Origin: an uncultured bacterium
GTDB taxonomy: Bacteria; Fidelibacterota; Marinisomatia; SCGC-AAA003-L08; JACNLC01
DNA length: 64,000 nt
Direction of reading: 5' to 3'
NCBI GenBank assembly: GCA_964527215.1
Contig: CAZGNZ010000017.1
Span: 1,610 to 65,609 of the forward strand
Under the pieces are notes generated by a model. The model ran no database searches, was not told where the DNA came from, and worked only from the letters and a program-made list of their open reading frames with translations. The position numbers and the translations under genes are program-made. Of the stretch, positions 7,096 through 25,200 are shown piece after piece (positions within the stretch are counted from its first letter, which is position 1; every line of letters begins with the position of its first letter).

Positions 7096-8271
7096 TCAGG
7101 GACTGAGGAGTGTTTCGGGAGCAGTATCCCGGATTTCACCATGTATGGCCTTTCGCAGATCCAGCAGCATTGTCACCGTCATCAGGGGAACATAGCCGTT
7201 TGCCTGAATGGCACGCTGAGTGTTTTCCACCACTTCCAGACACTCGCTCCAGCAGGCATCGGGGAATCGGACCAGCAGTTTTTCATATCTGGGTGCAAAA
7301 TCCCTGAATACCAGATGGTCTTCTGCCGCATTTCGTTCGGCAACCATCAGGTCCCGGAAAAAGAAACCGGCAATCCTGAAAATATTACCCAGTTCATATA
7401 TTCCGCTTTTCTTGCGCGTCCCGATATCCCTGATCAATTTCTGCCAATCTTTTGGATCCGATCTGAAAACTGTTCGGGCGAACAGTTCGACATCGGTAAA
7501 CATTTTTTTCTGATCCTGCACGATGCGCAGCGCCATTCGAATATCTCCTCCGGAAATGTGGGCAGCGGTGCGGGACTGATCAGCGTCTTTTCCCTGACGT
7601 ATCAGATACTCGGTGATTTCACTTTGCTTAAGGGGCGGAAAATAAAACGGCAGGCACCGGGATTTTATGGTGTCCAGGATTTGGTCAATCCGCGATGTAA
7701 CCAGTACAAAAACAGTGTTGGGGGGCGGTTCTTCAAGTATTTTCAGAAGGGCATTGGCTGCTTCCGGCTGCGGGATACACAATTTTTCAGCATCGAAAAT
7801 CAGTATTGCTTTCCATCCCCGATCCGCATGAGACATATAAATACGACGGCGAAGATCCCTTATGGAGTGAATCAGAATGGTATTGGCATTCTCCATCTCT
7901 ATTTTATAATAGGGATTCTGGCTCATTGATTCCATCTTACTGCGCAGTGCCTGTATCTCTTTGCTGCTGAGTCCCTTGAGGGGGGAATCCTCCGGACTCA
8001 GCTCCTTCCGACTGCGCGGAAGAGGCAAAATCAGTTCCACGTTGCCGTGCTGAAAACTGCTCACCTTGCTGCATCCTGGGCAGACCCCGCAAGCACCGTT
8101 CTCATCCGGTTGGTCACAGTTCACCAGCGCTGCAACCTCCAGAGCATACGCCTCCTTACCGGTTCCATGAGGACCGTAAAACAGCAGAGCATGGCTGAAT
8201 TTACGGTTGTGCCAGCTGGCCAATAGCAGTTTCCAGATGCGTGTCTGCGGAATCAAGTCTGAATAAATCAT
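7096..8271 (-). CDS. holB: DNA polymerase III delta' subunit (clamp-loader AAA+)
   Basis: It has GPHGTGKE, the Zn module CDQPDENGACGVCPGCSK, and the SRC motif (IKSRCLPFYF). Confidence 0.85.
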   Translation of the reverse strand: MIYSDLIPQTRIWKLLLASWHNRKFSHALLFYGPHGTGKEAYALEVAALVNCDQPDENGACGVCPGCSKVSSFQHGNVELILPLPRSRKELSPEDSPLKGLSSKEIQALRSKMESMSQNPYYKIEMENANTILIHSIRDLRRRIYMSHADRGWKAILIFDAEKLCIPQPEAANALLKILEEPPPNTVFVLVTSRIDQILDTIKSRCLPFYFPPLKQSEITEYLIRQGKDADQSRTAAHISGGDIRMALRIVQDQKKMFTDVELFARTVFRSDPKDWQKLIRDIGTRKKSGIYELGNIFRIAGFFFRDLMVAERNAAEDHLVFRDFAPRYEKLLVRFPDACWSECLEVVENTQRAIQANGYVPLMTVTMLLDLRKAIHGEIRDTAPETLLSP

Positions 8272-9518
8272 TTTTTACTCAGCCAGTGCTCTGGATTGAA
8301 TTTTTCATTTTCACCCCATACTTCAAAATGGAAATTTGCAGCACCGCCGTTGGCGATTTCGGTCTTGCTGACTTTTGCGATGAGCATCCCTGATTTCACA
8401 TATTCCTTCTCTGTAACCTGAATCTGATCTACATTGGCATACACGGTATGATAGCCGGAACCGTGCGAAATGATGATCACCTGCTTATATCCGTGCAGAA
8501 AACTGACACGGGATACGATACCATCCAAAACGGTGACAATATCAGAACCGGGTGCAGCTTTCAGGTCGATACCGGGATTTTCGGTTTTTGTTTTCAGGGC
8601 TTCATTGTACTGAATACCGTATTGGTTGACAATTTGCCCGGATACCGGCCAAGGCAGTCTGCCGCGCAAGTCCTTGAAATTTCCTTCCGTGGCCATCTGC
8701 TGAGCTTCACGGATTCGGACCAGTTCCGCCTCGTATTCCTGAGCGGAGGATTTATCTTTCAACAGCTGTTTGATGAGGTTTTCAAGCTCTGCAACCATCT
8801 GTTTTTTTGAGTTCAGCTGTTTTTCAAGGCCTGATTTTTCAGATTCCAGTTGTTTCTTAAAAGTATCCCGCCGGGCTTTGTCAGCAACCATGTTTTCGTT
8901 TTCCCGGTTTTTTTCATCCCGCAGCTTTTGAACATTCACCAATTCCTGATTGTATGATTCCGTTTCTGCCTCCAGCTCCTGAACGGTCTGTTCAATGTGA
9001 TGCATCAGGGTATCTTTATGGCGATTGATGGATTCAAGATATTTTACCCGATAAACCATATCATCCCAGTTTTCTGACAGGAGCAAAATTTCCAGAAAGG
9101 TGGGTTTACCGGATTTATAGAGATAGACAACCACATCACGCAGTTTCAGCTGCAGCGAGGACAGGCTGCCGTTTTTTTCCTCAATGGCATTCTGCGTGAT
9201 CTCTATCTGATCCCGAATCAGTCTCTCCTCCCGACTGAGAGACCGGACCAGTTTCTCGGTCAATTGGATTTTGTGATCAAGATCACGAATAATGCTTTCC
9301 ACAGAATAGGCGGCCCGTTCCTTTTCCTGAATCTGCCGCTCAAGCTGCTGAACTTCCGCTCTCAGGCTGATAAGATCGGTGTGCTGATGATCAATATCTT
9401 TCTGGATTTCCCAGGATGCCCGGTGTTCCTGATTCCAAACCAGGGTCAGACACAGCAGACAAAAAATGAAGTAAATAAATTTTTGCATCGTTAACCAGAC
9501 AAAATTAGCAATATCCAT
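8268..9518 (-). CDS. EnvC-like coiled-coil protein with a degenerate LytM/M23 domain (murein hydrolase activator type)
   Basis: It has a signal/TM segment, then a long coiled coil, then a C-terminal M23 fold. The metal ligands are degenerate: NPGIDL replaces HxxxD and NFHFE replaces HxH. Its end overlaps the holB start by 4 nt. Confidence 0.75.
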   Translation of the reverse strand: MDIANFVWLTMQKFIYFIFCLLCLTLVWNQEHRASWEIQKDIDHQHTDLISLRAEVQQLERQIQEKERAAYSVESIIRDLDHKIQLTEKLVRSLSREERLIRDQIEITQNAIEEKNGSLSSLQLKLRDVVVYLYKSGKPTFLEILLLSENWDDMVYRVKYLESINRHKDTLMHHIEQTVQELEAETESYNQELVNVQKLRDEKNRENENMVADKARRDTFKKQLESEKSGLEKQLNSKKQMVAELENLIKQLLKDKSSAQEYEAELVRIREAQQMATEGNFKDLRGRLPWPVSGQIVNQYGIQYNEALKTKTENPGIDLKAAPGSDIVTVLDGIVSRVSFLHGYKQVIIISHGSGYHTVYANVDQIQVTEKEYVKSGMLIAKVSKTEIANGGAANFHFEVWGENEKFNPEHWLSKK

Positions 9519-9636: not shown

Positions 9637-9774
9637 TGACAATTTTGTATGTTTTGTCTCCGAGGTGCTGTCACTGGTCAAAAACGTCGTCCCTTCAGGA
9701 CTTGAATCCTTCCCTCTTTCTCTCCGGTGGCTGAAGCCACCGGCTGGACAACCATTCCCCTTCGGGGAATAAAG
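9637..9774. repeat. Array unit X1 (5'-truncated, 3 substitutions relative to X2-X4)
   Basis: Aligns to offsets 19-156 of unit X. The differences are T/C, T/C and C/T in ...GTCTCCGAGG...CACTGGTCAAAAA. Confidence 0.9.
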
Positions 9775-10042
9775 AGAATTCGATGGTTTTCCGGCAGAGC
9801 AAACCACATCTTCAATGGGATTTCCGAAGTAATACTCATCAACGGACTCAGTGACGCAGAAGCATAGGTTAAATTCATTCTGCGCAGGGATTCATCTGTC
9901 TGCCTGGCTCGTAAAAATGATCCCGGCAGGGATCAGGGTATGCAGCCGGTGGCTTCAGCCACCGGTACGGGAAGTACAATATCGCAGTCCTGAAAGGACG
10001 ACGTTAAATTGACGGACAACCATTCCCCTTCGGGGAATAAAG
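9775..10042. repeat. Array unit Y1 (268 nt)
   Basis: Starts AGAATTCGATGGTTTTCCGGCAGAGC and ends GACAACCATTCCCCTTCGGGGAATAAAG. Identical to Y2. Confidence 0.9.
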
Positions 10043-10198
10043 AAAGTACGATGGTTTTAGTGACAATTTTGTATGTTTTGTCCCCGAGGTGCTGTCACCG
10101 GTTAAAAACGTCGTCCCTTCAGGACTTGAATCCTTCCCTCTTTCTCTCCGGTGGCTGAAGCCACCGGCTGGACAACCATTCCCCTTCGGGGAATAAAG
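10043..10198. repeat. Array unit X2 (156 nt)
   Basis: Starts AAAGTACGATGGTTTTAGTGACAATTTTG and ends ...GACAACCATTCCCCTTCGGGGAATAAAG. Identical to X3 and X4. Confidence 0.9.
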
Positions 10199-10354
10199 AA
10201 AGTACGATGGTTTTAGTGACAATTTTGTATGTTTTGTCCCCGAGGTGCTGTCACCGGTTAAAAACGTCGTCCCTTCAGGACTTGAATCCTTCCCTCTTTC
10301 TCTCCGGTGGCTGAAGCCACCGGCTGGACAACCATTCCCCTTCGGGGAATAAAG
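10199..10354. repeat. Array unit X3 (156 nt)
   Basis: Identical to X2, producing an X-X doublet. Confidence 0.9.
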
Positions 10355-10622
10355 AGAATTCGATGGTTTTCCGGCAGAGCAAACCACATCTTCAATGGGA
10401 TTTCCGAAGTAATACTCATCAACGGACTCAGTGACGCAGAAGCATAGGTTAAATTCATTCTGCGCAGGGATTCATCTGTCTGCCTGGCTCGTAAAAATGA
10501 TCCCGGCAGGGATCAGGGTATGCAGCCGGTGGCTTCAGCCACCGGTACGGGAAGTACAATATCGCAGTCCTGAAAGGACGACGTTAAATTGACGGACAAC
10601 CATTCCCCTTCGGGGAATAAAG
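10355..10622. repeat. Array unit Y2 (268 nt)
   Basis: Identical to Y1. Confidence 0.9.
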
Positions 10623-10778
10623 AAAGTACGATGGTTTTAGTGACAATTTTGTATGTTTTGTCCCCGAGGTGCTGTCACCGGTTAAAAACGTCGTCCCTTC
10701 AGGACTTGAATCCTTCCCTCTTTCTCTCCGGTGGCTGAAGCCACCGGCTGGACAACCATTCCCCTTCGGGGAATAAAG
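10623..10778. repeat. Array unit X4 (156 nt)
   Basis: Identical to X2 and X3. Confidence 0.9.
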
Positions 10779-11047
10779 AGAATTCGATGGTTTTCCGGCA
10801 GAGCAAACCACATCTTCAATGGGATTTCCGAAGTAATACTCATCAACGGACTCAGTGACGCAGAAGCATAGGTTAAATTCATTCTGCGCAGGGATTCATC
10901 TGTCTGCCTGGCTCGTAAAAATGATCCCGGCAGGGATCAGGGTATGCAGCCGGTGGCTTCAGCCACCGGTACGGGAAGTACAATATCGCAGTCCTGAAAG
11001 GACGACGTTAAATTGACGGACAACCATTCCCCTTCAGGGAAATAAAG
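10779..11047. repeat. Array unit Y3 (269 nt, last hairpin degenerate)
   Basis: Identical to Y1 and Y2 except at the end, where CCCCTTCAGGGAAATAAAG replaces CCCCTTCGGGGAATAAAG. Confidence 0.9.
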
Positions 11048-11299
11048 AGAAACGGCTCTGTGCGGCAAAAAGAACCCTGTGTTCCGGCGGACTTTTCCGC
11101 TCAGATTTTCCCAAAAAGGGAATTCGTCGGCAGGTGTGAATTTCAACCGGATCGTAATTCCTTTATTTCCAATGCGATTATTGTTCTCCGGATTTTCAGG
11201 AATCCGTTTTGAGGGACGGTGCACTTTTTGGCATTGTTGTTGCGAAAAGAATGACAAATTTCATTTCTATTAAAATTCCTTTGTCGGAGATACTCAAAT

Positions 11300-11611
11300 A
11301 TGGATCAGAAACAAATCAGTTCGGGACAAAGCCTGAATAATATGATTGAACAGGAACGAATCACTGCAATCCACGAAATTATCACAACCGTTAACCATGA
11401 AATCAATAACCCGCTTACAGCCATTATCGGCAATACTGAATTGCTTGATCTGGAGCTGAAATCCGGTAATCATCAAAAATTGGCCTCCGCATTGGATTCC
11501 ATCGCCTCTGCGGCCCAACAAATAAAACAAGTCACTCAACAATTAGCCAACATTACCTCATCAAAGACTGAGATCTACGCCGGTCGAAGTCGCATGACCA
11601 GTTTGTCCTGA
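11300..11611 (+). CDS. Orphan HisKA/DHp-only protein (103 aa, no ATPase domain)
   Basis: It has an H-box-like VNHEINNPLTAIIGNTELLDLEL followed by a second helix (ALDSIASAAQQIKQVTQQLANI). An intrinsic terminator follows directly. Confidence 0.65.
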   Translation: MDQKQISSGQSLNNMIEQERITAIHEIITTVNHEINNPLTAIIGNTELLDLELKSGNHQKLASALDSIASAAQQIKQVTQQLANITSSKTEIYAGRSRMTSLS

Positions 11612-11647
11612 CCACCATCAACAGGACAGATGCTGACTCGTTTTAGG

Positions 11648-11675
11648 GGCTGCCGGTACCGGCAGCCTTTTTTTT
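11648..11675 (+). terminator. Rho-independent terminator of the DHp-only gene
   Basis: The stem is GGCTGCCGG-TA-CCGGCAGCC, followed by TTTTTTTT. Confidence 0.85.
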
Positions 11676-11751
11676 GCCAACAGAATGTTCGGAGTAAAAC
11701 AGCGTTTGCTGAAAATCGGTGTATATTCTGCGGATGATTACCAATCGCTGA

Positions 11752-14259
11752 TTACCCGGTCTCTGCTGAGGGTATTTTCACCCTCAATGTCGTGCCTTTG
11801 TCAAGTTCACTCTCCACCTCAATCACACCGTTGAACTCCTTGACAATTCCATGAACAATTGAGAGTCCCAGCCCGGTACCTTCACCCACTTCCTTGGTTG
11901 TGAAAAAAGGTTCAAGGCAGCGCTGTTTTGCAGACTCAGACATACCAATCCCATTGTCTGTAACCTCAAACACGGCAAATGGTGATCCTTCATGATGAAA
12001 AAGATGCAGGCCAATTTCAGGGCTGTACGCAGTGATTTTTCCCTGTTTTCTTTTGGATTCCACTGCAAACCTGGCATTGGACATGAAATTCACAACGATC
12101 TGCTGGAATTCCTGGGGATTGACAAGAACCAGCGGAAGGTGATCCTGAATTTCAATGTTTAATTTGATATTATGGACTTTAAACTGCTGCTGGAAAAAGA
12201 CAAGACTTTCGCGTACAGGCTGTATCAGATTGATCCGGTCCGTGGGACTGGAGGATTTCCGGGAAAAATTACGCATATGGGTAATAATGTCTGACGCTCT
12301 TCGGACCTGATTTAATATCAGATCCATATCGTTCATGGTTGTTTCCGGGATATTCTTCATGTTTCGAAACTGAAGCTTGAGAAGTTCTACCTGAGCCTGA
12401 ATGATGGCCAGGGGCTGATTCAGTTCATGAGCCACGCCGGTCGCCATCTCACCCAGTGAAGCCAGTCGGCTCGAATGCACCAGCTGAGCCTGTTTTTCCT
12501 GCAGTTCCAATGACCGTTCCTTTACCATTTCCTCCAAATGATCACGGTATTTTTCCAGTTCGGATTCATTCCTTTTCTGCCGTGTGATATCATTCCCGAT
12601 GACGACTGCGCCCTCGATCTCATTCCGGTCATTCATCAGAGGAACGGCAGAATTTAAAATAATCTTTGATTCCCCGTCCTGACTGTGAATCTGGACCGGT
12701 TCATTTAAGGTGGTGATCCCTGACTCACAGGCTTTGGCGGATGCCCATTCATGAGGCTCAATTTTCTTACCGCTGTCAAGAAACCAGCCGTCATATTCAA
12801 AGTCATCAAGGCTGTTGTTCAGTTCCGGAACTGCCCATATCCTCCGGCTTGCCAGATTGTCGCTGACCACATTCCCTTTTTTATCGGTGATCCAGACACC
12901 CACAGGCAGAATTTTCAAAACCTTCCGAATTCGCTCTTCATTTTCCCTCAGTGCCCGGCTGGCTTCCTGACGCTCCAGAAATACAGACAGCAGCTCACTG
13001 ATTACAATCAGTACCCTCTGTTCGTGTTCGTACCACTTTCGGGAGCTCAGATGATCCTCCACCACCAGATAGCTGTGCGGTTTTTCACGAAAAAGGACTG
13101 GTACTGCCATAAGCGCACGAAGTTCGGTTTTCCGGAACCACTCCACCATGACAGTATCCGAAGCAGGTACATTTTTTGAGCTTCTGATAATAACGGCCTC
13201 GCTCTGCCTGAATCGATCCATTATCCGGTGTCCCAGTTCATTCTGACGGCTCGGGAAAAAAATAGAATCCACCATAGGCTGATCCGGATTCATCCAGGTT
13301 GAACCGCCGGGAAAATCAGTCACATTATCATCCAAAGATACGATGGTCACCCTGCTGGCTTTCATTGTGGTTCCCATCAGTTTCATCAGTTGAGGGAAAT
13401 CCGGAGTATCGCCGGAAGCAAACAGACGGGATGCCCTGGCAATGGCTTCCTCCAGCATCAGATGATGAGTGATAATTTTTTCTGATTTTTTCCGTCTGGA
13501 AATATCTGTGGTCAGCACGACAATTTTGGATACTTCGCCGTCTCTGCCGTACAAAGCATAAAAATACTGTGATATCCAGGTGGCTTTACCCGGCCGGTTT
13601 TTATGCAGCCTCATTTCAGGGATATGATACTCACCCCCATTCTCGTAAACTTCCCGAACACCGGCAGCATGCTCACCCAGGTAAGAATCCCGTTGATCCA
13701 GACGGAACTGTTCGCGGGGTTCAAAATACTGAGCCAGATCCTCATCCGGAATGGCCCATATCTCTCGCCAGGCTCGATTGACGATCAGCAGCTGTCCATT
13801 TTTCTCCCGGATGGAAATACCGATGGGTGAGTTTTCGATCACAACGCGGATTAAGCCCTCGTACCCGTCTTTAATGCTGCCGGATATCTGCTGATCCATT
13901 TCCAGCGTCCGGTTGACCCGTGTCAGCTCCTGCCTGAGTTCAGCCTTTTCCAACGCAATCCTGAGAACCTGGACCGCCGGTTCAAGATATTTTTCCAGTA
14001 ATCCCTGATCTTTCTGGGCCATGCTGTCCATTGTCAGAAAACCGTATTTTCTGAAAAGGGTCTGAATTGGCATCCATCCGCTCGTGTCAGCATCAGAAAA
14101 AAGTTCCGAAGCCTGACGAAATTTCATATCGACGCCGTAACGATCCAGCAGATTGATAAAATTCTGGATGATCTGCCCCGGTTCCTCATCTTTGGATAAC
14201 TGGTAAATATGATCAATCAGATCAGGTATCTCTTTTAAAATGGTTTTATTAAAAGGCAT
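11752..14259 (-). CDS. Sensor histidine kinase HK1 (PAS-GAF-PAS-HisKA-HATPase)
   Basis: H-box LGEMATGVAHELNQPL, N-box NFMSNARFAV, G1 DNGIGM, G2 GTGLGLSIV, with upstream PAS- and GAF-like segments. Confidence 0.9.
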   Translation of the reverse strand: MPFNKTILKEIPDLIDHIYQLSKDEEPGQIIQNFINLLDRYGVDMKFRQASELFSDADTSGWMPIQTLFRKYGFLTMDSMAQKDQGLLEKYLEPAVQVLRIALEKAELRQELTRVNRTLEMDQQISGSIKDGYEGLIRVVIENSPIGISIREKNGQLLIVNRAWREIWAIPDEDLAQYFEPREQFRLDQRDSYLGEHAAGVREVYENGGEYHIPEMRLHKNRPGKATWISQYFYALYGRDGEVSKIVVLTTDISRRKKSEKIITHHLMLEEAIARASRLFASGDTPDFPQLMKLMGTTMKASRVTIVSLDDNVTDFPGGSTWMNPDQPMVDSIFFPSRQNELGHRIMDRFRQSEAVIIRSSKNVPASDTVMVEWFRKTELRALMAVPVLFREKPHSYLVVEDHLSSRKWYEHEQRVLIVISELLSVFLERQEASRALRENEERIRKVLKILPVGVWITDKKGNVVSDNLASRRIWAVPELNNSLDDFEYDGWFLDSGKKIEPHEWASAKACESGITTLNEPVQIHSQDGESKIILNSAVPLMNDRNEIEGAVVIGNDITRQKRNESELEKYRDHLEEMVKERSLELQEKQAQLVHSSRLASLGEMATGVAHELNQPLAIIQAQVELLKLQFRNMKNIPETTMNDMDLILNQVRRASDIITHMRNFSRKSSSPTDRINLIQPVRESLVFFQQQFKVHNIKLNIEIQDHLPLVLVNPQEFQQIVVNFMSNARFAVESKRKQGKITAYSPEIGLHLFHHEGSPFAVFEVTDNGIGMSESAKQRCLEPFFTTKEVGEGTGLGLSIVHGIVKEFNGVIEVESELDKGTTLRVKIPSAETG

Positions 14260-14379
14260 TGAATCCTCTCTCCAATTTGATCATATCCAACCGTTTCAAT
14301 CGATTGATCCGGATTTCGTTGGGTATTCTGCCAAGGTCCGGCCTGATGCCGCCAATGGGTATTTTCGGAATCATTGGTT

Positions 14380-17300
14380 TCAGTTGGTTTCCGGTGCGAT
14401 TCCCGCTGGGATGGCAATTCTAAACTCCGTCCCATTACCCGGAGCGGAATCCACCATCAGCTGTCCCTGGAATTCGCGAATGATATTGTGCACAATGGAA
14501 AGTCCCAGTCCGGTTCCTTCACCAACTTCCTTTGTCGTGAAAAACGGTTCAATGCAGTGTTCCTTCTCGTCCGGAGACATTCCGATTCCATTGTCGGCAA
14601 CCTCAATGACCACGGAGTCTTCAGATTCAGAGAAAAAGCTGCGGATCGTCACAATCCGCTGATACCCCGGTCCTGCATTTTCCGCCATTTTATCTACGGC
14701 ATACCGGGCATTGGACATGAAATTGACAATCACCTGTTCCAGTTTCTGCGGATTAATTCGAACCTTGGGCAAATTGGCTTCCTGCTCAACCTTCAGGTCA
14801 ATATCATTGACCCGGAACTGCTCACGGAAAAATACCAGGCTGCCGTTTACGGGATCGGCAATATCCACAAGCTCTGGATAGGACATTGTTTTTCGCGCAA
14901 ACCCCCGCATATGATCGATTATCCGGGTGGCTCTTTCGACTTCGTTGATGATGTTGTCAAGATCCCGATCCATCTCATTGCCCTGGTCTTGTTTGCAGTA
15001 TATCATTTTAAGAAGCTCCGCCTGAGCCCGAATGATGGAAAGAGGCTGGTTTAGCTCATGAGCCACCCCTGTGGCCATTTCACCCAGGGAAGCCAATCTT
15101 CCGGAATGAGCAAGCTGAGCCTGTTTTTCCTGCAGTTCCTTTGTACGCTGCTCTACCAGATCCTGAAGATGTTCCTGATAATTGGACAGCTCCTTTTCTT
15201 TCTGCTTTCGATCCGTGATATCCCGGTAAATACCGTAAACAGCCAGCTGACTGTTATCCAGAATAATTGGAGCTCCCGTCACGGAAACATCTATCGGCTG
15301 ATTATTTTTATTTTTCCGAACTGTCTCAAATTCCACCAGCTTTCCGTCCAAAACAACCTGTGTGGTTTCCAGGCTTTCCGCTTCCCTGCCTTCGGGAATG
15401 ATCAGATCATTGATGCATCTGCCGTGGAGCTCTGCCCGGCTGTACCCAAAAAGCTCAATGAAACGGATATTGGCCATAATGATGGAGTTGTTCATATCCA
15501 GCAGAACAATAGCATCCGGTGATGAGGCAAACAGTTTTTCAAAATAGGTTTTTTGCACTCGAAGCTGATTTTCAGCCTGCCATCTATCCGTAATATCTTC
15601 ACCGGAACTGAGGGTGCCCGTAATCTGTCCGCTTTCATCTCTGATGATACTGTCTCTCCACGCGATGATGCGCTCGAATCCCTCCCGTGTTGTAATGGGA
15701 TTGGTGTATTGCGGGCGCGGTTCACGCTTTCCGGTTACTATTTCCTGAAAATCCCTGTGAACTTTATCGCGGATTGAGTCCTCTATGAAGCAGTTAAACC
15801 AGTTTTTTCCAACAATTTCATTTCGCGGAAGCTCCAGGATTTCCTGGCCTTTGCGATTGATCTGAAGCACTGCACCGGTACAGTCCAAAATAAGGATGAT
15901 AACCCCGGCGATATCCAAATAAGTCTGAACTTTTTCTTTTTCTTTTCGAAGCTCGTTTTCCGTTTGACGCTGTTTTGTGACATCCATGACCAGTTCCACT
16001 GTTCCGATCACTTCACCCGTCCTGCCAATTACCGGCTGAATTCGAACACTGTACAGTTTGCTGTCACTCTCACAAATCGATTCTATTTCAACGGGCGTTC
16101 GAGTTTCCATTACCTGTTGAAAATCGCAGTCGCCGCTTATCGCATTCTTGTTTATGATTTCATCATAGCAGGGTCGGGTCGGCATTTCGTCAAAAGCCTG
16201 CTTCTGTTCAGAAGATGGATGATTGGTCCAGACGACATTCAGTTTCCGGTCCCGGAATACAATGTATTTGTAGATGCTTGCCAGTATCGCTGCTTTTTCG
16301 TATTCGCTGCGCAGCAAGGCATTATGGGTTTCAGACTGCTCTGTTATATCCTGAATGACCGTAACAATATGGCATACCCGGCCATCTTCAAACAACGGGA
16401 TTTTCCTGATCTCAGTAATCAATGTTTCCCCGTTAAAATTTAACCGGTCGGTTTTGATGATTTTCTCCCCGGTTCTGAATATGCTCTGATACTCGGACCG
16501 GCTTTTCTCGTCAATCATCGGATACGTTTCGAACAGATTCTCCCCGATGGGATTGAGATTCAGCTCCAGTTTCTTATGCAGTTTCAGCTGTGTCTGGTTT
16601 ATATCCACAATTCTGAATTCCGGATCAATCAGGAAAATACCATCAGTCATAGAGTCCACCATCTTATGGTATTTTTCCTTTTCCCAGCGCAGGTCTTTTG
16701 AAGCATTAACTTTCTCGGAAATATCACGGCATATGGATAAAACGGCGGGTGTATTCCGGTAGGTAAATGGAACGGCAGAGGTTTCAACATCCAGAACCTG
16801 TCCCTGAATGTTGATAAACTTCTGCGCTATCGAGGGCATTACTATTCCTTCGTTCAGAGTTCGGCGGATACGGTCCATGACCTGTTCATAACTGTTTTGT
16901 TGGATAAAATCTGTAATGGGCCGGCCGTATAGGTCCTCGGGATTGTCAGCGCCGGTCAGTTTCAGAGCTGCCGGATTGCAGTAAACAAGTTTGCCGTCTA
17001 TATGAATACCCACCGCATCCGGCAGTGCTTCAACCAGACAACGGTATTTTTTTTCATTTTCCTCCAGTATTTCCTGATATTCGATTCTATCTGTCACATC
17101 CCGAATAATACCGATCACACCGAATTTATAATTCTGCATTGAAGTGCGAATTTCCAGGTGCCGGTTATTGTATTCCAGGGCAAACCAGGGAACGGCGGTG
17201 CCTGTGAGCCCCTGTCGAACCATTTTGAGTATACCGGGAATTTGGGCTTTGGACAGATGTCTGCGAACGAGAGAAAATACAGATTGATCGATGACGTCTT

Positions 17301-17871
17301 CCGCTGAAAGCCCGGTCATTTCACTGAAAGCCCTGTTCACCTCCAAAACCTTTCCGGCAAGTGAAACCAAAACGATACCGTCTCCGGCATTCTGGAAAAA
17401 ACCGACATATTTTCGGTAAAGGGCTTCAAAATCCGGATCAGGCTGGTTACTTCTGTTCCGCTGGCTTTCGTGTTCATTCTGCATGACAGACAGCCGCATC
17501 AGGGTCCTGATACCAGACCGCACTGCGCTGCGCGGGACTGGAACCGGGTAGATCAATTCTGGCTCTGCACCCGCCACTGCTTCTGTAAGTTCAGAATCCG
17601 CATCCCGGGGCATGAACACCGTTACAGGGATCAGTTCTGAAACTGGATTTTCAGAAAGCGTCTGCAGGTCCCTGACGACGTCCTCTGTTCCTGCATGAAT
17701 GCGGACATCATAAAAGAGCAGGTTTGTTTTTTCTTTACCGGTCGAATTCAGGAATTGGTTCAGTGAAGTGACCCATTCTGTTTCAGAGGACGAATCTGAC
17801 ACTTCCTGAACAATATCCGACAGCAGTTCCATCAGTTCAGAATCACCTGAAATCACTGCTGTGCGGCTCAT
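14380..17871 (-). CDS. Sensor histidine kinase HK2 (N-terminal receiver-like domain, about six PAS-like modules, HisKA-HATPase)
   Basis: H-box LGEMATGVAHELNQPL, NFMSNARYAV, DNGIGM, GTGLGLSIV, with repeated PAS S-box-like segments. Its start overlaps the HK3 stop by 4 nt. Confidence 0.9.
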   Translation of the reverse strand: MSRTAVISGDSELMELLSDIVQEVSDSSSETEWVTSLNQFLNSTGKEKTNLLFYDVRIHAGTEDVVRDLQTLSENPVSELIPVTVFMPRDADSELTEAVAGAEPELIYPVPVPRSAVRSGIRTLMRLSVMQNEHESQRNRSNQPDPDFEALYRKYVGFFQNAGDGIVLVSLAGKVLEVNRAFSEMTGLSAEDVIDQSVFSLVRRHLSKAQIPGILKMVRQGLTGTAVPWFALEYNNRHLEIRTSMQNYKFGVIGIIRDVTDRIEYQEILEENEKKYRCLVEALPDAVGIHIDGKLVYCNPAALKLTGADNPEDLYGRPITDFIQQNSYEQVMDRIRRTLNEGIVMPSIAQKFINIQGQVLDVETSAVPFTYRNTPAVLSICRDISEKVNASKDLRWEKEKYHKMVDSMTDGIFLIDPEFRIVDINQTQLKLHKKLELNLNPIGENLFETYPMIDEKSRSEYQSIFRTGEKIIKTDRLNFNGETLITEIRKIPLFEDGRVCHIVTVIQDITEQSETHNALLRSEYEKAAILASIYKYIVFRDRKLNVVWTNHPSSEQKQAFDEMPTRPCYDEIINKNAISGDCDFQQVMETRTPVEIESICESDSKLYSVRIQPVIGRTGEVIGTVELVMDVTKQRQTENELRKEKEKVQTYLDIAGVIILILDCTGAVLQINRKGQEILELPRNEIVGKNWFNCFIEDSIRDKVHRDFQEIVTGKREPRPQYTNPITTREGFERIIAWRDSIIRDESGQITGTLSSGEDITDRWQAENQLRVQKTYFEKLFASSPDAIVLLDMNNSIIMANIRFIELFGYSRAELHGRCINDLIIPEGREAESLETTQVVLDGKLVEFETVRKNKNNQPIDVSVTGAPIILDNSQLAVYGIYRDITDRKQKEKELSNYQEHLQDLVEQRTKELQEKQAQLAHSGRLASLGEMATGVAHELNQPLSIIRAQAELLKMIYCKQDQGNEMDRDLDNIINEVERATRIIDHMRGFARKTMSYPELVDIADPVNGSLVFFREQFRVNDIDLKVEQEANLPKVRINPQKLEQVIVNFMSNARYAVDKMAENAGPGYQRIVTIRSFFSESEDSVVIEVADNGIGMSPDEKEHCIEPFFTTKEVGEGTGLGLSIVHNIIREFQGQLMVDSAPGNGTEFRIAIPAGIAPETN

Positions 17872-20800
17872 AATACCTTCCCTGAACCCTCTGGAATCAG
17901 ATGGGATGAATAATCAGGAGGACAGGCCGGGAAACTGATACTGACTGTTGTGCCCTGGTTTTTTTTACTGCTGATATATATAGAACCACCGAATTCACGA
18001 ACAATACTGTGAGAAATGGACAGACCCAATCCTGTTCCGACACCCACTTCTTTGGTGGTGAAAAAGGGTTCCATGCATTTCTGTTTTTCTTCCGGGTTCA
18101 TTCCAATTCCATTGTCAACCACTTTTATGGTCACATAATTTGTGAATGAATTTTCAATCGTTGTCAAACAGATTTTCATTTCCGCTCGGTTCGTATCCCG
18201 GCTTTCCACAGCGTACCGGGCATTGGACATGAGGTTTACAATCACCTGTTCCAGTTTCTGAGGATCTATCAAAATCTGAGGGAGGTTGTCTGCCAGTGAC
18301 AGCTCAAGCTGGATTCCGTGCGCCCGAAACTGTTCCTTGAAAAAAATGAGGGTCTGATTGAGAAGGAAATTTACATCGCAGGGATCGGCGGGCTGTCCCT
18401 CTTTCCGGGAAAAACTGCGCATTACACTGATAATTTTTGCAGCCCGGTCCACCTGATCCATAATTTTATCAAAATCCTTCAGTTGAGCCGGACTCATCAA
18501 ATTTCGGTTTTTACTTTGCAGGCGCAGCAGTTCTGCCTGCATTCGAATGATAGACAGGGGCTGATTGAGTTCATGGGCAACACCGGCAGCCATTTCACCC
18601 AGAGCCACCAGCCGTCCGCTGTGGACCAGCTGAGCCTGATGTTCTTTCAGTTTTTTCTGTATCTCTTTCGCCTCTGTAATATCCATCAGGAAGGAGCGAA
18701 TTTCGGCATGATCGGATTCGACATCCGGATAATATCGGGTTAATTCATAAATCCAGAAAATCCGGTCGTGATGCTGAATCCGGTATTCCTGTTCAAGCAC
18801 TCCCTGGGGCTTTGAAAGATATTCCTTCAGTTTACCCTGGACCTCCGCGGAGTCATCAGGGAATACAAGTTCGCGCAGATCCAGGCCGCCTTCAAGAAAT
18901 GCATTGCGTTCAAGTTCAAGCTGAGTAATATTCGGGGACACGTACCTCAAATGAGCCTGATCAGGCGGATTCCAGTCCCACTGGAATACAATGATAGGTC
19001 CTTCAATGAATAAATCCCGTTCTCTCTCCAATTCCCTGTTGATTACATCCAGTTCTTCCGTCCGCTTCTGTACCAGATTTTTCAGATTCTGCTTTTGCCG
19101 GTTGATATACCGGGTGCGGAAATTAATGCTGCCAAGGATTATCAGAATCACTGCCAGGACCAGAAAAATTCTGAACGGTGCGGTTCTCCAGATCGGCGGG
19201 TGTATCAGCACATTCAGCATAATCCCCTCATCGTTCCAGACACCGTCGTCATTGGAGGCCTTCACTCGAAATGTGTAGCTTCCTCCGGGCAGACTGGTAT
19301 ATGTGGCAATACGCCTGTTCCCGACGTAATTCCAATCCTTTTCAAACCCTTCCAGGTAGTAGGCATACAGGTTTCTTTCAGGCTGATTAAAAGACAGTGC
19401 CGAAAACTCAAATGAAATCACGTAGTCATCATAATTCAGTTCAATTGTATCCGTATGAAGGATTGATTTATGCAGGATTTCCCTGCCGTCATCCATTTCC
19501 CCAATGGGGACCGGCTGATTAAACAGGCTGAATCCCGTGATTTTAACAGGCGGGCTGAACGGATTCAGCGTCACATCAAGCGGGTTGAAAGCATTGAGTC
19601 CGTTAATCCCGCCAAAATAGAATGTACCGCTGTCTCCTCTGTGATACGCACCGGCGTTGAACTCGTTGCTCTGCAGCCCATCTGATTTATTGAAATACCT
19701 GAACTGTCCGTCATCGGGATTCATTCGGCAGAGACCGTTGTTGGTACTCATCCACAAACATCCGCTGTCATCGCGAATTGTACCATAGACAACATCGCTG
19801 GGAAGCCCGGAAAAGGTTGTATAGGTATCAAATATTCCGCTGATGGGGTCCAGCCGGATCAGCCCTCCGCCATACGTGCCAATCCACAGCATCGTACCGT
19901 CATTGTAGAGGGAAAGAACATCATGACTGCGTTCTGCACGGAGATATTTTCGCTGAAAGTTATGGTGTATCAAATGGCCCGGCTGTTCGGGAGTCATTTC
20001 AAAAACCCCACGGCTGTTGGTGCCGATCCAATAATGTCCGTTCTGATCCTGGGTCATGCAGGTGACGCCATATTTCAGCGGGGAATCAGCTGTTCCCGGA
20101 TCGGAGGGATAATTCCACCAAAGCCCGGCCTCGGGCTGGTAACGCGAGATACCCCTTCCTGTGGACATCCACAAGGTGTTTTCATTATCCTCAAAAATAT
20201 GATACACGCTGTTATCCAGAAGACTGTTTGGATTTTTCGGCTGATGGAAAAAACGCTGAAATGAATCCGTCTCGGGCTGATACCGATTTAAACCGTTGTC
20301 AGTTGCAACCCATATGGATTGGTCACGACTCTGGTAAATAAACCAGATTACATCAGAACTGACGGTGGTGGAATCCTCCGGAATATGGGTTTTGGTTTTA
20401 AACTCATCCGTACCAGATTCCAGAATATTGATACCGCCGAAAGTGCCGACCCAAAGCGACCCGTCTGACATCTCAAACATGGTGTAAACATGCTTGTCAG
20501 TAAGCAGATCGGGATTTCGAGGTGTGTTGTGAAATACCTTGAATTTTCGGGCGTGGGGGGCATAATAGCTGAGACCGGATCCAATTGTTCCAAACCAGAC
20601 AATTCCCTCTGCATCTTCAAAAATGGTCAGTATGACATCCCCGCAGATGGTGGAACCATCGTAGGGATCATGAAAAAAACGCGTGAAGGTTCCCTGCTCC
20701 CGGTTCAGGATATTCAGACCGTCGGAGGTCGCTATCCAGAATATTCCCCTGCTGTCTTCAAAGAAATTATAAACATAATTACAGCTCAGCGATGTCTCAT

Positions 20801-21599
20801 CACCGGGATCATTCAGATAACTCTGAAATCCATCCGTCTCAGGCAGATAGCGGCTGATTCCCCCATTTTCAGTGCCAATCCAGAGATTCTTCTGACGATC
20901 AGAATACACACAATAGATGGAATTATCCTGAACAGCATTGGGGTTTCCCGGGTCTGCCGGGTAATGGATGAATGTACTGTCAACAGGATTGAACCGGTCC
21001 AGCCCATTACTGGTCCCGATCCACAGGTTTCCGGCAGAATCAAAACTCAGGGTTGTGACAAGGTCTGAAATCAGGCTGCCCGGATCATCATCCCGGTGCC
21101 GGAATCTTCGAGCGGTGTTCCGATTGGTGTCAAGACATGCAAGACCGCCGTCAACAGAAGCAATCCACAGTGTACCGTCTTCATCCTCCGCCATCCACCA
21201 GATCGATTTTCCGGTTTGTCCCTGGAGACTGTCGGAATCGCTGGAATACCGGATGAATGACTCCCTTTCAGGATCATATCGGTTCATCCCTCCCCATTGA
21301 GTTCCCAGCCACATGCGGGATTTTCGGTCCATAAAGATATGAAACACAGACAGATGACTGAGTGTTGTTGAATCGCCGTATTCCGGCGTAAACACTTTGA
21401 ACTGCTGACCGTCATAGCGGTTGAGACCTTCCTCTGTTCCAAACCAGAGAAAGCCGCTGGAATCTTGATTTATGGCGTAAATGGTATTCTGGGAAAGGCC
21501 GTCATCAATATTGACATGTTTAAATTCAATATCCCTGTATTGCCCGGCAGCAACAGATAACAAGCAAAATATGAGCCCAATTCCAAACGTCTTATTCAT
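17868..21599 (-). CDS. Sensor histidine kinase HK3 with a periplasmic two-component-regulator beta-propeller plus Y_Y_Y domain
   Basis: It has a signal peptide and many repeats of the type WIGT..GL.R(Y/F). These are followed by a Y_Y_Y-like segment (YAYYLEGFEKDWNYVG...YTFRVKASN), one TM helix, a PAS-like domain, the H-box LGEMAAGVAHELNQPL and an HATPase domain. It lacks the REC and AraC outputs of classical Bacteroidetes HTCS proteins. Confidence 0.9.
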   Translation of the reverse strand: MNKTFGIGLIFCLLSVAAGQYRDIEFKHVNIDDGLSQNTIYAINQDSSGFLWFGTEEGLNRYDGQQFKVFTPEYGDSTTLSHLSVFHIFMDRKSRMWLGTQWGGMNRYDPERESFIRYSSDSDSLQGQTGKSIWWMAEDEDGTLWIASVDGGLACLDTNRNTARRFRHRDDDPGSLISDLVTTLSFDSAGNLWIGTSNGLDRFNPVDSTFIHYPADPGNPNAVQDNSIYCVYSDRQKNLWIGTENGGISRYLPETDGFQSYLNDPGDETSLSCNYVYNFFEDSRGIFWIATSDGLNILNREQGTFTRFFHDPYDGSTICGDVILTIFEDAEGIVWFGTIGSGLSYYAPHARKFKVFHNTPRNPDLLTDKHVYTMFEMSDGSLWVGTFGGINILESGTDEFKTKTHIPEDSTTVSSDVIWFIYQSRDQSIWVATDNGLNRYQPETDSFQRFFHQPKNPNSLLDNSVYHIFEDNENTLWMSTGRGISRYQPEAGLWWNYPSDPGTADSPLKYGVTCMTQDQNGHYWIGTNSRGVFEMTPEQPGHLIHHNFQRKYLRAERSHDVLSLYNDGTMLWIGTYGGGLIRLDPISGIFDTYTTFSGLPSDVVYGTIRDDSGCLWMSTNNGLCRMNPDDGQFRYFNKSDGLQSNEFNAGAYHRGDSGTFYFGGINGLNAFNPLDVTLNPFSPPVKITGFSLFNQPVPIGEMDDGREILHKSILHTDTIELNYDDYVISFEFSALSFNQPERNLYAYYLEGFEKDWNYVGNRRIATYTSLPGGSYTFRVKASNDDGVWNDEGIMLNVLIHPPIWRTAPFRIFLVLAVILIILGSINFRTRYINRQKQNLKNLVQKRTEELDVINRELERERDLFIEGPIIVFQWDWNPPDQAHLRYVSPNITQLELERNAFLEGGLDLRELVFPDDSAEVQGKLKEYLSKPQGVLEQEYRIQHHDRIFWIYELTRYYPDVESDHAEIRSFLMDITEAKEIQKKLKEHQAQLVHSGRLVALGEMAAGVAHELNQPLSIIRMQAELLRLQSKNRNLMSPAQLKDFDKIMDQVDRAAKIISVMRSFSRKEGQPADPCDVNFLLNQTLIFFKEQFRAHGIQLELSLADNLPQILIDPQKLEQVIVNLMSNARYAVESRDTNRAEMKICLTTIENSFTNYVTIKVVDNGIGMNPEEKQKCMEPFFTTKEVGVGTGLGLSISHSIVREFGGSIYISSKKNQGTTVSISFPACPPDYSSHLIPEGSGKVL

Positions 21600-21809
21600 A
21601 AACAGGCAATTATAAAATCAAAAACTGCAGAACCTACATACTGCACTGCAGCAGGAAATCAGCGTGTAAAAACAGTGACGATGTATTATGGATTAAGGGG
21701 GGAGCCTAATTTAACGGTATTCGATTTATTAAAACCACAAGAAGATTTCTCGAACCTGAAATCCGCACATTCGGCCGCAGCGTTTATAAATCAGCCGACC
21801 CATTGCTGC

Positions 21810-21948
21810 CCCGCATATTTCTCGAAAATATGCATGCGTAAAATGCTTCGCATATTCCGGACGATAGTATATCTGGTCGATTCTGTTTCAATTACGCTCG
21901 ATATCTGTTCTCATTTTACTGTCCGTACAATGTCGATGAATTTCCCTG
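21810..21948 (+). mobile_element. MITE-like element, variant copy D (boundaries approximate)
   Basis: It aligns to the reverse complement of copy C (CATGCGTAAAATGCTTCGCAT...CAATTACGCTCGATAT). The terminal motifs are degenerate. CTGC is present on both flanks (21806-21809 and 21949-21952). Confidence 0.6.
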
Positions 21949-22075
21949 CTGCAGGAAAAGAACCAGAGTAATACGTGCTGCAGATCAATTTTATCTCGAT
22001 TGAATCCGTCAGTGGGCGGATTTTTAATCCGTCTCCTGACGGACAAGTGTAACTGGGTGCATTCCCCGCCGCTTG

Positions 22076-22171
22076 TTTGAAATCCGCCATTTGGCGTGGC
22101 GGCGAAATAAAAAATGATTATATCACTAATGATACCCCGTCCCGTCGGCTGACGGGCGGGGAAATTCATTA
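22076..22171 (+). repeat. Short intergenic repeat family E, copy 1
   Basis: AAATCCGCCATTTGGCGTGGCGGCGAAAT...CCGTCCCGTCGGCTGACGGGCGGGGAAATTCATTA is shared with 31341-31436. It contains two GC-rich hairpins. Confidence 0.8.
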
Positions 22172-22265
22172 TTTCTATGTGTGAGATTCAGTAAACCATT
22201 GTTGAAATCCGTCTGTGATCGAGAGCGGATCAGGTGTATTTTGGACAGACTGGTGTGATCCGGTT

Positions 22266-25200
22266 TCAGCTGCTTTCCGGAATGGGTATTTTGAGCTGTA
22301 CCGAAGTACCGGACATGGGTTTACTTTTAATTTTCAGGCTGCCGTTAAAATCAGCCATGAGGTTTTGAACAATTGTAAGTCCCAAACCGGTACCTTTGGA
22401 TTGGCTTTTGGTTGTAAAAAAGGAATCCCGGCAGTGTTTGAGTTCATTTTCATCCATGCCAATCCCATTATCTGAAATTTCAAGATAGCTGCAGCGGGAT
22501 TCAGGATCAAAGCGTGCAATAATTTCAATTTCCATCTGATAGCTTTTTTCAGCCACGCTTTTTCGCTGTTCCACTGCATGCCGGGCGTTGGAGAGGAAAT
22601 TCACGACGATCTGCTCAAACCGGACAGGGTTGACGGGAATCAGCGGAATGTCATTTGGAAGACTTGTTTTGAAAATAATGCCGTGATTGCGGAACTGTTC
22701 ACGGAAAAACATCAGGCTGTCGCGAATAGGAAAGACGATATTGATCGGATCCTGATGTTCAGCTGCCATGGTTGAAAAAGTACGGGCATGTTCCATGATC
22801 TCCTGTGCCCGGTCAGCCTGTTTCATAATGTTCTGGCAGGTTTCCAGTATGTCCGTTTTCGGCGGAATATTTTTGTTCAGATTTAATTTCAGACATTCCG
22901 CCTCTCCACGGACAATTGAGAGAGGCTGATTCAGTTCGTGGGCAATCCCTGCTGCCATTTCACCCAGCAGCGCCAGTCTTCCGGTATGAGCCAGTTTGGT
23001 TTCCTGCTTCTGGAGCTCCATTTGGGCATACTTCAGTTCCGAAACATCCATGAAAAAACTGTTAAACACCTGAGCATCAGACTGCTGGGCGTCTTCGTGG
23101 ATACGAACCTGAAAATATATCCAGCGCTCATCGGAGTTGGGAAGAATCACTTTCACTTCATTTTCCAGCACTGACAGCTGACCCTCCTGCAGTTCACGGA
23201 TGCCATTTTTCAGACGTTCATAGTCTTCCGGAAACAGCAGGGTGTCATAGGAGAATTTTGCCTGCAGCACATCTTCCGGCATTACACCAAACTGAAAAAT
23301 GTTGGGGGAGGCATAGGTGGCTTTCACCGGCTTGCCGGGCTTCAGCTCCCAGTTGATCACCGCAACCGGTCCGGTAAGAAATAAATCCCGTTCAGCTTCA
23401 ATGAGTTTCTTTGATTCATTCAGCTCAGCGGTACGCTGCATCACCATTTCTTCCAGCTGCTGCTTATACCGCTGCAGTTCCTCCTCTGCACGTTTCTGAG
23501 CAGTCACATTTCGGGAAATGCCGACCATCCCCTGAATTTGACCCTTCCTGTCTCTGACCGGGACTTTGGTTGCCGTAACCCACAAATCATGATTTCTGGG
23601 ACCCTTCAGTTTCTCAAGCTTGTTGATTACGGGTCTTCCGGTCCTAAACAGCTCCAGTTCATCAGTAAGCATCGCCTCAGCCGTCTGGTTTTCAAAAAAA
23701 TCAAAATCAGACTTGCCGACAGCCTCCAGCGGTGATTTCACTCCAAGAACCCGTGCCTGCGCGTTGTTGATCAGTGTAAACCGGCTGTATTTGTCTTTAA
23801 AATATATAGTATCCGGTATGTTTTCCATCAAGGCATCCAGCAGTCCCCTGGCGGATGTCTCTTCCTGCTCCGGCGTCAGCAAATACACAACCACCGCAGC
23901 ATTGATAACGGTTGATTTATCATTGGCTGCCGGCTGAAACCGGCATTCCAGACGTCCGATGAATTCCGATTCGGCAGGCAGCGGAACCAGTACCCTGGAT
24001 GATTCACCTTCAAAGCAGCGTTTCAGGTGCTGCAGCCAGAAGGACTGATAATCCTGAGTGATAAAATCAAGCAGATGATGTCCTTCCACCGGACTTTTGG
24101 AAAACAGATCGTAACCGAAAGGCTGCTGAGCAGACAGCATCTTGATCTGATATTCGTCATCCAGCAATAAAAACATCAGATTGAAATTTTCCAGGACATC
24201 GCCAAGGATTTTCTGCCAAAACTGAGACTGGCCTTCCGGTGATATCTGAACTTCTCTTGCAATGCCCATAATTCCCGCCGGCTGATTATTTTCATAAATA
24301 ATCGTACTCCAGATTTCCACAAGAATGGACCTTTTGCTCCCGGTGATCATTCGATACTGCTCCACCCGGGTCTGAAAACCGGTCTGCCGTATTTGAGTCA
24401 GCATCACCAGCGAACGGGATAGATCAGATGGATGTATCAAATCCCGATAGCTGAGTTTTTTGAACTTTTCACCGTCATATTCAAACAGTGCCTGTGCAGC
24501 AGGATTGGCATCCACGAAGTTACCGTCAAGATCATGGATAAACAGGGGAGTCGGGGTGTTTTCAAACAGATTTTGGTGATTTTGGCTTTTTGCCTGGAGA
24601 TTTTTCCGAATAAACTGGCGGTCGGTTGCATCCTGAAAAGAGATCAGCAGCAGCGGTTCGCCGTCAATAATCACTGATCTGGCGGTCAGCTCCATGGGAA
24701 TGTCTTCTCCCTGTCCGGTTTTCAACACCCAGTTGAAAACGTGCTGCTCTTTTTTTCTGGCCACCCCAAGCTGTTTCTGTAAGTTGCGGGAGTCATCATC
24801 ATTCTGAATGAACTGCAATGGAGTCAGGTCTGATATTTTCTGATGAATCAAATCCTGGCAATCCTGGAACCCCAGTCTGCTGACAGCAGCAGGATTGCAT
24901 TCAATAATACTGTCTCCTTCCAGAAGCAGCATCGGGCGATCTGACTGATTAAAAATCTGTCTGTATTTATCTTCGGCTTTTTGAAGCTTGTTTTCCTGAA
25001 TCCGTTTACTGAGACAGCCGGAAATGCTTTCATGCAGCATTTCAAAGGAAACGGGTTTTCTAAAATAGTTCGATGCTCCCAGCCGGACGGCTTGAATAGC
25101 GGTATCGATATCTCCATGGCCGGTGACAACAATGGTCTGAAGGCTGGGCTGAATTTCCTTAGCCTTGCGGATCAGTTCAATTCCATCCATTCCCGGCATG

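Follow-up and report, generated by a model that had tools for sequence, protein, structure and literature searches.

Two-component signaling is usually drawn as a kinase and a regulator, and a HisKA domain without an ATPase is dismissed as 'incomplete' or fragmentary. The closest described systems are the dimerization and histidine phosphotransfer (DHp) fragments of EnvZ ('domain A') and NtrB, which are HisKA hairpins with an H-E-x-x-T/N motif and no catalytic, ATP-binding (CA) domain; these fragments dimerize, bind their cognate regulator and dephosphorylate it (PMC3510030). Spo0B of Bacillus and ChpT of Caulobacter are DHp-like four-helix bundles that carry an acceptor His and make no use of ATP. 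Here we describe a natural, CA-less DHp protein of 103 residues encoded in a 64,000-nt stretch of contig CAZGNZ010000017.1 from an uncultured bacterium (Fidelibacterota; Marinisomatia), with the whole stretch referred to below as the window. Sequence comparisons identify it, with high confidence, as the smallest form, devoid of a sensor, within a large and unnamed family of transmitters that naturally have no CA domain. Its role is probably to take phosphate off a partner regulator or to pass it on, with no sensing and no use of ATP of its own. Its HisKA domain and chemistry are known; what appears new is a natural kinase-less architecture with a conserved C-terminal tail, sigma-54 control and coupling to complete kinases.

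The gene and its predicted fold

The gene comprises 103 codons and a stop, with an ATG start (11300..11611, plus strand). The open reading frame (ORF) is there just as the initial annotation of this DNA gives it, and it is conserved in related genomes: an indexed search returned orthologues of 99% (P0001, 103 aa), 75% (P0002, 104 aa) and 61% identity (P0003, 127 aa), and the C-terminus of each lies within three residues of a shared tail motif. A metagenome scan for close relatives gave a maximum identity of 39%. Codon comparison with the P0002 gene (locus L001) yielded dN 0.17, dS 1.18 and a dN/dS of 0.15, indicating a real gene under purifying selection and not a chance ORF. The minus-strand ORF that overlaps it (11294..11542) is a shadow ORF.

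The gene was placed by the initial annotation between a repeat array and a kinase block, convergent with the first kinase (HK1), and this layout holds, with the final repeat copy stopping at 11062 and the block starting at 11752. The distance to the array, given there as 250 bp, is 237 nt when measured to the ATG. Only 140 nt separate the stop codon from the 3′ end of HK1 on the minus strand, and the terminator that had been noticed from the letters lies inside this gap as an 11-bp stem followed by a T-run. No HATPase-like sequence was seen in 11612–11751, and so short and terminator-bearing a gap leaves no space for a decayed CA domain. The orthologous genes also have their own terminators (L001, 608–629; L002, 888–913). 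On L002, the contig that encodes P0003, some 280 nt separate the gene from a divergently oriented M23-peptidase gene, a homologue of the one at 8268–9518 of the window, with no array between them. As the array-free L002 has the short gene beside the same M23 peptidase, the short gene is older than the 1.4-kb repeat array, and truncation of a longer sensor-DHp gene by that array is ruled out. An Rfam scan of the window at gathering thresholds gave no matches.

HisKA (PF00512) is the only Pfam family above cutoff in the protein (42.5 bits, E 6.7e-11, gathering score 26.9), and no HATPase, sensor or transmembrane (TM) family was found, in keeping with the HisKA-only description and the claimed lack of an ATP-binding domain, sensor or TM segment. 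The residues H33-E34-I35-N36-N37-P38-L39 fit the acceptor context H-E/D-x-x-T/N-P-L. No Hpt match at E ≤ 1 was obtained in the Pfam scan of the protein, SPOB_a (PF14689) reached 13 bits against a cutoff of 28.1, and NCBIfam gave sub-threshold matches only, to the DHp region of many kinases (AtoS best, 33 bits).

An AlphaFold2 (AF2) model built with the family alignment has a mean predicted local distance difference test (pLDDT) score of 88. Helix 1 (residues 3–55), a loop and helix 2 (residues 61–83) form a hairpin with a pLDDT of about 90, and the C-terminal segment is modeled as a β-hairpin with strands at 90–93 and 97–100. About 25 helical residues precede the DHp match, with no other domain there; beyond helix 2 the protein stops after 20 residues, and the 15-residue β-hairpin is the only structure in that segment. 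Foldseek searches of the PDB gave weak matches (E ≥ 0.06), of which the best-ranked, ChpT, HK853, DivL and SrrB, all contain a DHp. Compared with canonical sensor histidine kinases, the protein has neither a C-terminal HATPase_c nor a sensor or TM input, and compared with Spo0B and ChpT it scores below the PF14689 cutoff and has no C-terminal pseudo-CA α/β domain. As these defining features were checked and found absent, the protein falls outside both the Spo0B/ChpT and the HPt families.

The CA-less family and its sigma-54-type promoters

We searched 1.84 billion cluster representatives exhaustively with phmmer (922 matches at E ≤ 1e-3), aligned the best 150 representatives to a hidden Markov model (HMM) of the family and counted residues over 151 aligned sequences. 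Of the best 150, 137 end within 100 residues of the DHp match, and so have no CA domain, and 140 match the HMM through the C-terminal tail; the best 34 matches are all CA-less or short proteins. Among GTDB species genomes every recovered locus is CA-less (80/80), and these loci belong mostly to Neomarinimicrobiota/Fidelibacterota, Zixibacteria, Ignavibacteriales, Gemmatimonadales, Latescibacterota and other largely FCB-group lineages. The protein thus belongs to a CA-less family that is very large and marked by a diagnostic tail, and its initial description as an 'orphan' does not hold in the sense of homology. At their N-termini family members bear GAF (the commonest, about 270 aa in total), PAS, REC or HAMP/TM inputs, or none, which suggests that the DHp with its tail is itself the regulated output.

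The family H-box is NHEINNPL, which the window protein matches exactly. Its columns are conserved: the acceptor is H in 148 sequences and D in 2; H+1 is E in 136, Q in 6 and K in 4; H+3 is N in 148; H+4 is N in 134, Q in 9, T in 5 and S in 2; and the P and L positions are conserved in 150 and 149. The replacement of the acceptor His by Asp in P0080 (NDKINSPL) and P0120 (GDQINNPL) is possibly phosphomimetic or purely structural.

The hallmark tail reads Y93-A-G95-R-S-R-M99-T-S-L102-S103-stop in the window protein. Y93 does not vary in alignment A2 and hardly varies in A1; M99 is close to invariant in A2. Because CA-containing relatives with the same HEINNPL H-box (P0082, P0135 and LvrB) have no such tail, the tail is specific to the CA-less module. 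The predicted β-hairpin sits where complete kinases have the DHp-CA linker and the first CA strand, and we speculate that, in place of a CA domain, it may offer the surface on which a receiver, or the CA of a partner, docks. Some seemingly stand-alone database entries (P0005, P0201, P0219) derive from GAF- or PAS-DHp genes broken by frameshifts; other stand-alone members, including the clade of the window protein, are genuine. Public names of family members are generic, such as 'histidine kinase dimerization/phospho-acceptor domain-containing protein', and literature searches on DHp-only, HisKA-only and tandem-DHp proteins returned no description of a tail-bearing CA-less family.

Upstream of the gene, TGGCATTGTTGTTGC fits the −24/−12 consensus TGGCAC-N5-TTGC with exact spacing, 57 nt 5′ of the ATG, and implies a transcription start near 11255. 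Neither this element nor the tail was part of the initial annotation. The pattern TGGCAY-N5-TTGC has a single exact match across the two strands of the 64-kb window (0.41 expected anywhere). TGGCATTGTTGTTGC is identical in L001 (75% orthologue) and nearly so in L002 (61%), where it reads TGGCATTATACTTGA, while the rest of the upstream DNA has diverged. Within the fetched loci, we set the family genes preceded by an upstream region of their own against the remaining genes, and found GGCAY-N5-YTGC within 150 nt upstream of 10/41 family genes versus 9/392 others (odds ratio 13.7, Fisher p 1e-6). The motif-positive family genes are mainly Zixibacteria and Ignavibacteria GAF-DHp genes. In the Marinimicrobia flagellar operon, where the family gene lies inside a long operon, no sigma-54 motifs were found, and sigma-54 control thus appears limited to independently transcribed members. 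Sigma-54-dependent expression of the window gene is predicted, and we predict with high confidence that the locus is a self-contained monocistronic transcription unit consisting of a sigma-54 promoter, the 103-aa gene and a terminator (Table 1).

Table 1. Features of the locus, in window coordinates.
Feature	Position	Strand	Basis or details
Coding sequence, 103-aa CA-less DHp protein	11300..11611, stop codon included	+	ORF call; orthologues 99%/75%/61%; dN/dS 0.15 vs L001; AlphaFold2 mean pLDDT 88
HisKA/DHp domain, residues 26-84	11375..11551	+	Pfam PF00512; AF2 secondary structure; weak Foldseek DHp matches
H-box N32-H33-E34-I35-N36-N37-P38-L39 (TTVNHEINNPLTAIIGNTELL)	11393..11416	+	Acceptor His33 codon 11396-11398; intact H-E-x-x-N kinase/phosphatase motif
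C-terminal tail K89-S103, KTEIYAGRSRMTSLS	11564..11608	+	Hallmark Y-x-G-x-x-x-M-x-x-L; predicted β-hairpin
Intrinsic terminator	11645..11678 (hairpin 11645-11670)	+	11-bp stem, 7 GC, loop 4, then T-run
Sigma-54 (RpoN)-type −24/−12 element TGGCATTGTTGTTGC	11229..11243	+	GG 11230-11231, GC 11242-11243

Neighboring genes and fusions

The kinase block (11752–25379, minus strand) encodes four consecutive complete HisKA+HATPase_c kinases, HK1 to HK4, of 835, 1163, 1243 and 1037 aa, with PAS, GAF, Reg_prop/Y_Y_Y or REC inputs. HK3 has Reg_prop/Y_Y_Y β-propellers and HK4 an N-terminal REC, and no response-regulator gene is adjacent to the block. The FixL-like H-box HELNQPL, in which H+4 is Q and not T/N, is common to all four, and the contrast with HEINNPL drawn in the initial annotation therefore applies to each of them. 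Identity between the 103-aa protein and the DHp regions of HK1–HK4 is 18–23%, and the H-box class differs. At this level of identity the four kinases are not its parents, and a recent origin from them is ruled out.

The position beside the four kinases, which had been put forward for a conservation check, is kept within the same species and lost beyond it: past the terminator, the 75% and 61% orthologues (L001, L002) are followed by a gene for a 350-aa REC-GGDEF protein and not by kinases. No orthologue of this REC-GGDEF protein is present in the window, where the only match is a 34% one to the GGDEF domain of an 837-aa protein (40796–43309). That protein, encoded on the plus strand with the architecture REC-GAF-PAS x3-GGDEF, is the sole diguanylate cyclase in the window and holds one of the window's two REC domains.

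Association with a complete kinase is also seen elsewhere in the family. A GAF-DHp gene follows a PAS-HisKA-HATPase_c kinase gene in 19/65 loci with an upstream neighbor (the Marinimicrobia-type arrangement), with gaps of 2–15 nt in 13 loci and about 30–110 nt in 5; the upstream kinase has about 415 aa and the H-box HELSQPL. Downstream, flgF/flgG comes next in 10/71 neighbors scanned, and the kinase/GAF-DHp unit lies inside flhF-flhG-fliA-...-flgA-flgI clusters. By gene order, the kinase-less GAF-DHp protein is an integral part of the Marinimicrobia flagellar locus. In L005–L046 (e.g. L011:3194-14949) the cluster runs flhF, flhG, fliA, three unknown genes (about 88, 330 and 100 aa), PAS kinase, GAF-DHp, flgF, flgG, flgA, (flgH), flgI, and L005 has an extra stand-alone copy of 134 aa right behind the GAF-DHp gene.

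We also identified Rosetta-stone fusions (P0048, P0065, P0095, P0099, P0035) in which a single HATPase_c goes with two HisKA domains, in the order PAS-[DHp+tail]-[DHp-CA]. The first DHp of these tandem proteins has the H-box HELNQPL or HELNTPL and the tail YVGxxR(I/L)xD(L/I); a literature search on tandem-DHp kinases found nothing. In addition, P0042 is a membrane-anchored TM-[DHp+tail]-HD_5 (HD-GYP-type) protein, and a similar one is encoded at L073:9701-10855. Judged by its domain composition, the HD_5 fusion is a second tie of the family to cyclic-di-GMP enzymes.

In Zixibacteria and Ignavibacteria (L026, L037, L049, L057 and similar loci), purF, the gene for amidophosphoribosyltransferase, repeatedly stands divergent to the family gene. 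Of the upstream neighbors, 22/65 have GATase domains, and the sigma-54 motif lies in the intergenic region shared by purF and the family gene. No two-component neighbor was found for these and the other stand-alone copies, nor a common two-component partner.

In the window, the M23-peptidase gene and the DHp gene diverge, and the space between them is filled by a composite tandem array of 156/268-nt units (9637–11062), absent elsewhere in the window. A perfect 20-nt palindrome, CCGGTGGCT(GA/TC)AGCCACCGG, occurs in the array seven times, and GGACAACCATTCCCCTTCGGGGAATAAAG is present there in six exact copies. Same-species short-read assemblies (L003, L107, L108) break 267–294 nt 5′ of the DHp start codon, at or just within the right edge of the array.

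Candidate function and comparison with known systems

Our favored reading, to which we assign a probability of roughly 0.4, is that of a sigma-54-induced DHp homodimer whose target is a REC domain and whose activity is most likely that of a phosphatase. Two hairpins would dimerize into the usual four-helix bundle. As the protein has no ATP-binding domain it could not autophosphorylate, and the dimer would dock the REC domain of its partner and dephosphorylate it through the intact H-E-x-x-N motif, in the manner of the isolated EnvZ and NtrB DHp domains. As there is no sensor domain, the level of activity would follow the level of expression, and so would be set by a sigma-54 enhancer-binding activator; in relatives with GAF, PAS, REC or HAMP domains the same activity would be under allosteric control. 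The most plausible target class would be a REC-domain protein, because a REC-GGDEF diguanylate cyclase adjoins the gene in two distant orthologues. In HisKA kinases the N/T at H+4 is needed exclusively for phosphatase activity, the E at H+1 has a kinase role, and a DHp from EnvZ or NtrB is by itself enough for phosphatase activity, giving a constitutive phosphatase phenotype in vivo (PMC3510030). A phosphatase-type N/T at H+4 in 139/150 representatives supports this reading.

Several points weigh against it. Isolated DHp domains are far weaker phosphatases than DHp+CA (PMC3510030). The acceptor His is near-invariant (148/151) and 136/150 representatives retain the Glu at H+1 that is specific to the kinase reaction, and as a pure phosphatase would not obviously need either residue, genuine phosphorylation of the His is suggested. 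A terminator parts the gene from REC-GGDEF in both L001 and L002 and the window has no REC-GGDEF orthologue, which makes the assignment of this partner weak. Most other family members lack any two-component neighbor, and the window ORFs scanned, otherwise of housekeeping type, include no Sigma54_activat or enhancer-binding protein.

The conserved His and Glu would be accounted for if the protein were the acceptor of a split kinase, with the CA domain of a complete kinase (HK1–HK4 or another) charging His33 and the phosphate then passing to a separate response regulator of its own, giving the kinase pathway an extra branch or input. The PAS-[DHp+tail]-[DHp-CA] fusions, the GAF-DHp genes directly behind Marinimicrobia kinases and the four kinases that the window gene abuts all point the same way. 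However, the gene is convergent with HK1 and so is not co-transcribed with it, kinase adjacency is missing in the 75% and 61% orthologues, and many family members have no kinase nearby. To our knowledge there is no documented natural HisKA case in which the CA of one kinase phosphorylates a foreign DHp dimer, and the 'split kinase' Hik36/Hik43, considered as a precedent, is a CheA-type case and not comparable. We regard such trans-phosphorylation as less likely than the phosphatase reading, though a serious rival to it. Proximity to four paralogous kinases in this species, together with inducible sigma-54 expression, would also suit a dominant-negative inhibitor whose hairpin heterodimerizes with the DHp of HK1–HK4 or of another kinase and blocks autophosphorylation, and in principle intramolecular hetero-bundles could arise in the tandem DHp-DHp-CA fusions. 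Heterodimerization with HK1–HK4, raised in the initial annotation, is nevertheless disfavored by the 18–23% DHp identity and the different H-box class. In sequence the protein is closest to other CA-less proteins and not to HK1–HK4, the adjacency is lost in the two more distant orthologues, and the near-invariant His, N+3, N+4 and P-L would be superfluous in an inhibitor, which makes this role improbable.

A relay following the logic of Spo0B and ChpT, also suggested at the outset, is still conceivable and yet is not the option best supported: His33 would take phosphate from one REC, such as the N-terminal REC of HK4 or a hybrid kinase, and give it to another, such as that of REC-GGDEF. The near-invariant His would fit, as would the REC proteins nearby (HK4, the 40796–43309 protein) and beside the orthologues, the weak similarity to SPOB_a and the top rank of ChpT among the Foldseek PDB matches, at a non-significant E of 0.06. 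Yet Spo0B, ChpT and HPt, the known relays, are without sensor domains, whereas GAF, PAS, REC or HAMP is present in most of the family; Spo0B and ChpT retain a pseudo-CA domain that the window protein lacks; the SPOB_a score is far under its cutoff; none of HK1–HK4 (0/4) has a C-terminal REC; and a relay leaves the conserved phosphatase Asn and kinase Glu unexplained. We consider it, too, less likely than the phosphatase reading, though a serious rival. A repeat array and a block of duplicated kinases are a setting that breeds gene fragments, and the gene could on that ground be a decayed-kinase remnant or a spurious ORF. This reading is effectively refuted by the comparative data: dN/dS is 0.15 at a dS of about 1.2, the 75% and 61% orthologues are similarly short and keep promoter and terminator, L002 has the same short gene with no array, hundreds of relatives are CA-less, and no leftover HATPase-like sequence follows the gene. 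The initial annotation, which likewise saw no HATPase-like sequence before the terminator, is borne out by the combination of purifying selection, the same short length in relatives and the family-wide CA-less architecture.

The HisKA-without-ATPase proteins described here form a coherent, strongly conserved family with its own tail, a range of sensors, recurrent sigma-54-type promoters, fusions to complete kinase cores and to an HD-GYP-type domain, and a fixed place in the Marinimicrobia flagellar locus. We tentatively propose, as a possibility with the odds against it, that the DHp plus β-hairpin module is a distinct, widespread and unnamed class of two-component transmitter. Kinase-less, it would work with or against complete kinases, as a signal- or sigma-54-regulated receiver phosphatase or as a trans-charged second acceptor, with the hairpin replacing the CA domain as docking element and the window protein as the minimal, transcription-regulated form. 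If the family is phosphatase-only or trans-charged, kinase and phosphatase inputs would be split onto separately regulated proteins in many uncultured FCB-group bacteria, and the 103-aa protein would be a tractable minimal model for DHp-receiver recognition and catalysis. That such a protein can exist is no surprise; with so large and coherent a family, with its fusions and with a tractable 103-aa form, a specific question becomes directly testable.

Among known systems, the best solved match is LvrB of Leptospira (PDB 8vc9; profile E 2.6e-8), which shares the HEINNPL H-box. Unlike the window protein, LvrB has HATPase_c and no tail, and the match ends at about profile position 77 of 97. The ZraS/AtoS-type kinases likewise have HATPase_c and no tail, and the AtoS score, the best in NCBIfam, is far below equivalog cutoffs. 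P2CS/MiST-style censuses would place the protein among 'incomplete histidine kinases' (iHKs) without HATPase, a bookkeeping category and not a characterized family; the category is described in bioRxiv 10.64898/2026.02.27.708494, which deals with the reverse situation, proteins that have HATPase and no HisKA. Spo0B and ChpT keep a full, ATP-dead CA-like α/β domain and have diverged H-boxes, whereas the H-box of the window protein is canonical HisKA. By analogy, the protein may act most like the engineered EnvZ and NtrB DHp fragments, as the favored phosphatase reading implies, or alternatively, though we think this less likely, like Spo0B and ChpT. The EnvZ and NtrB fragments are laboratory truncations with no tail, whereas the window gene is natural and under selection, with its own sigma-54-type promoter and a β-hairpin tail.

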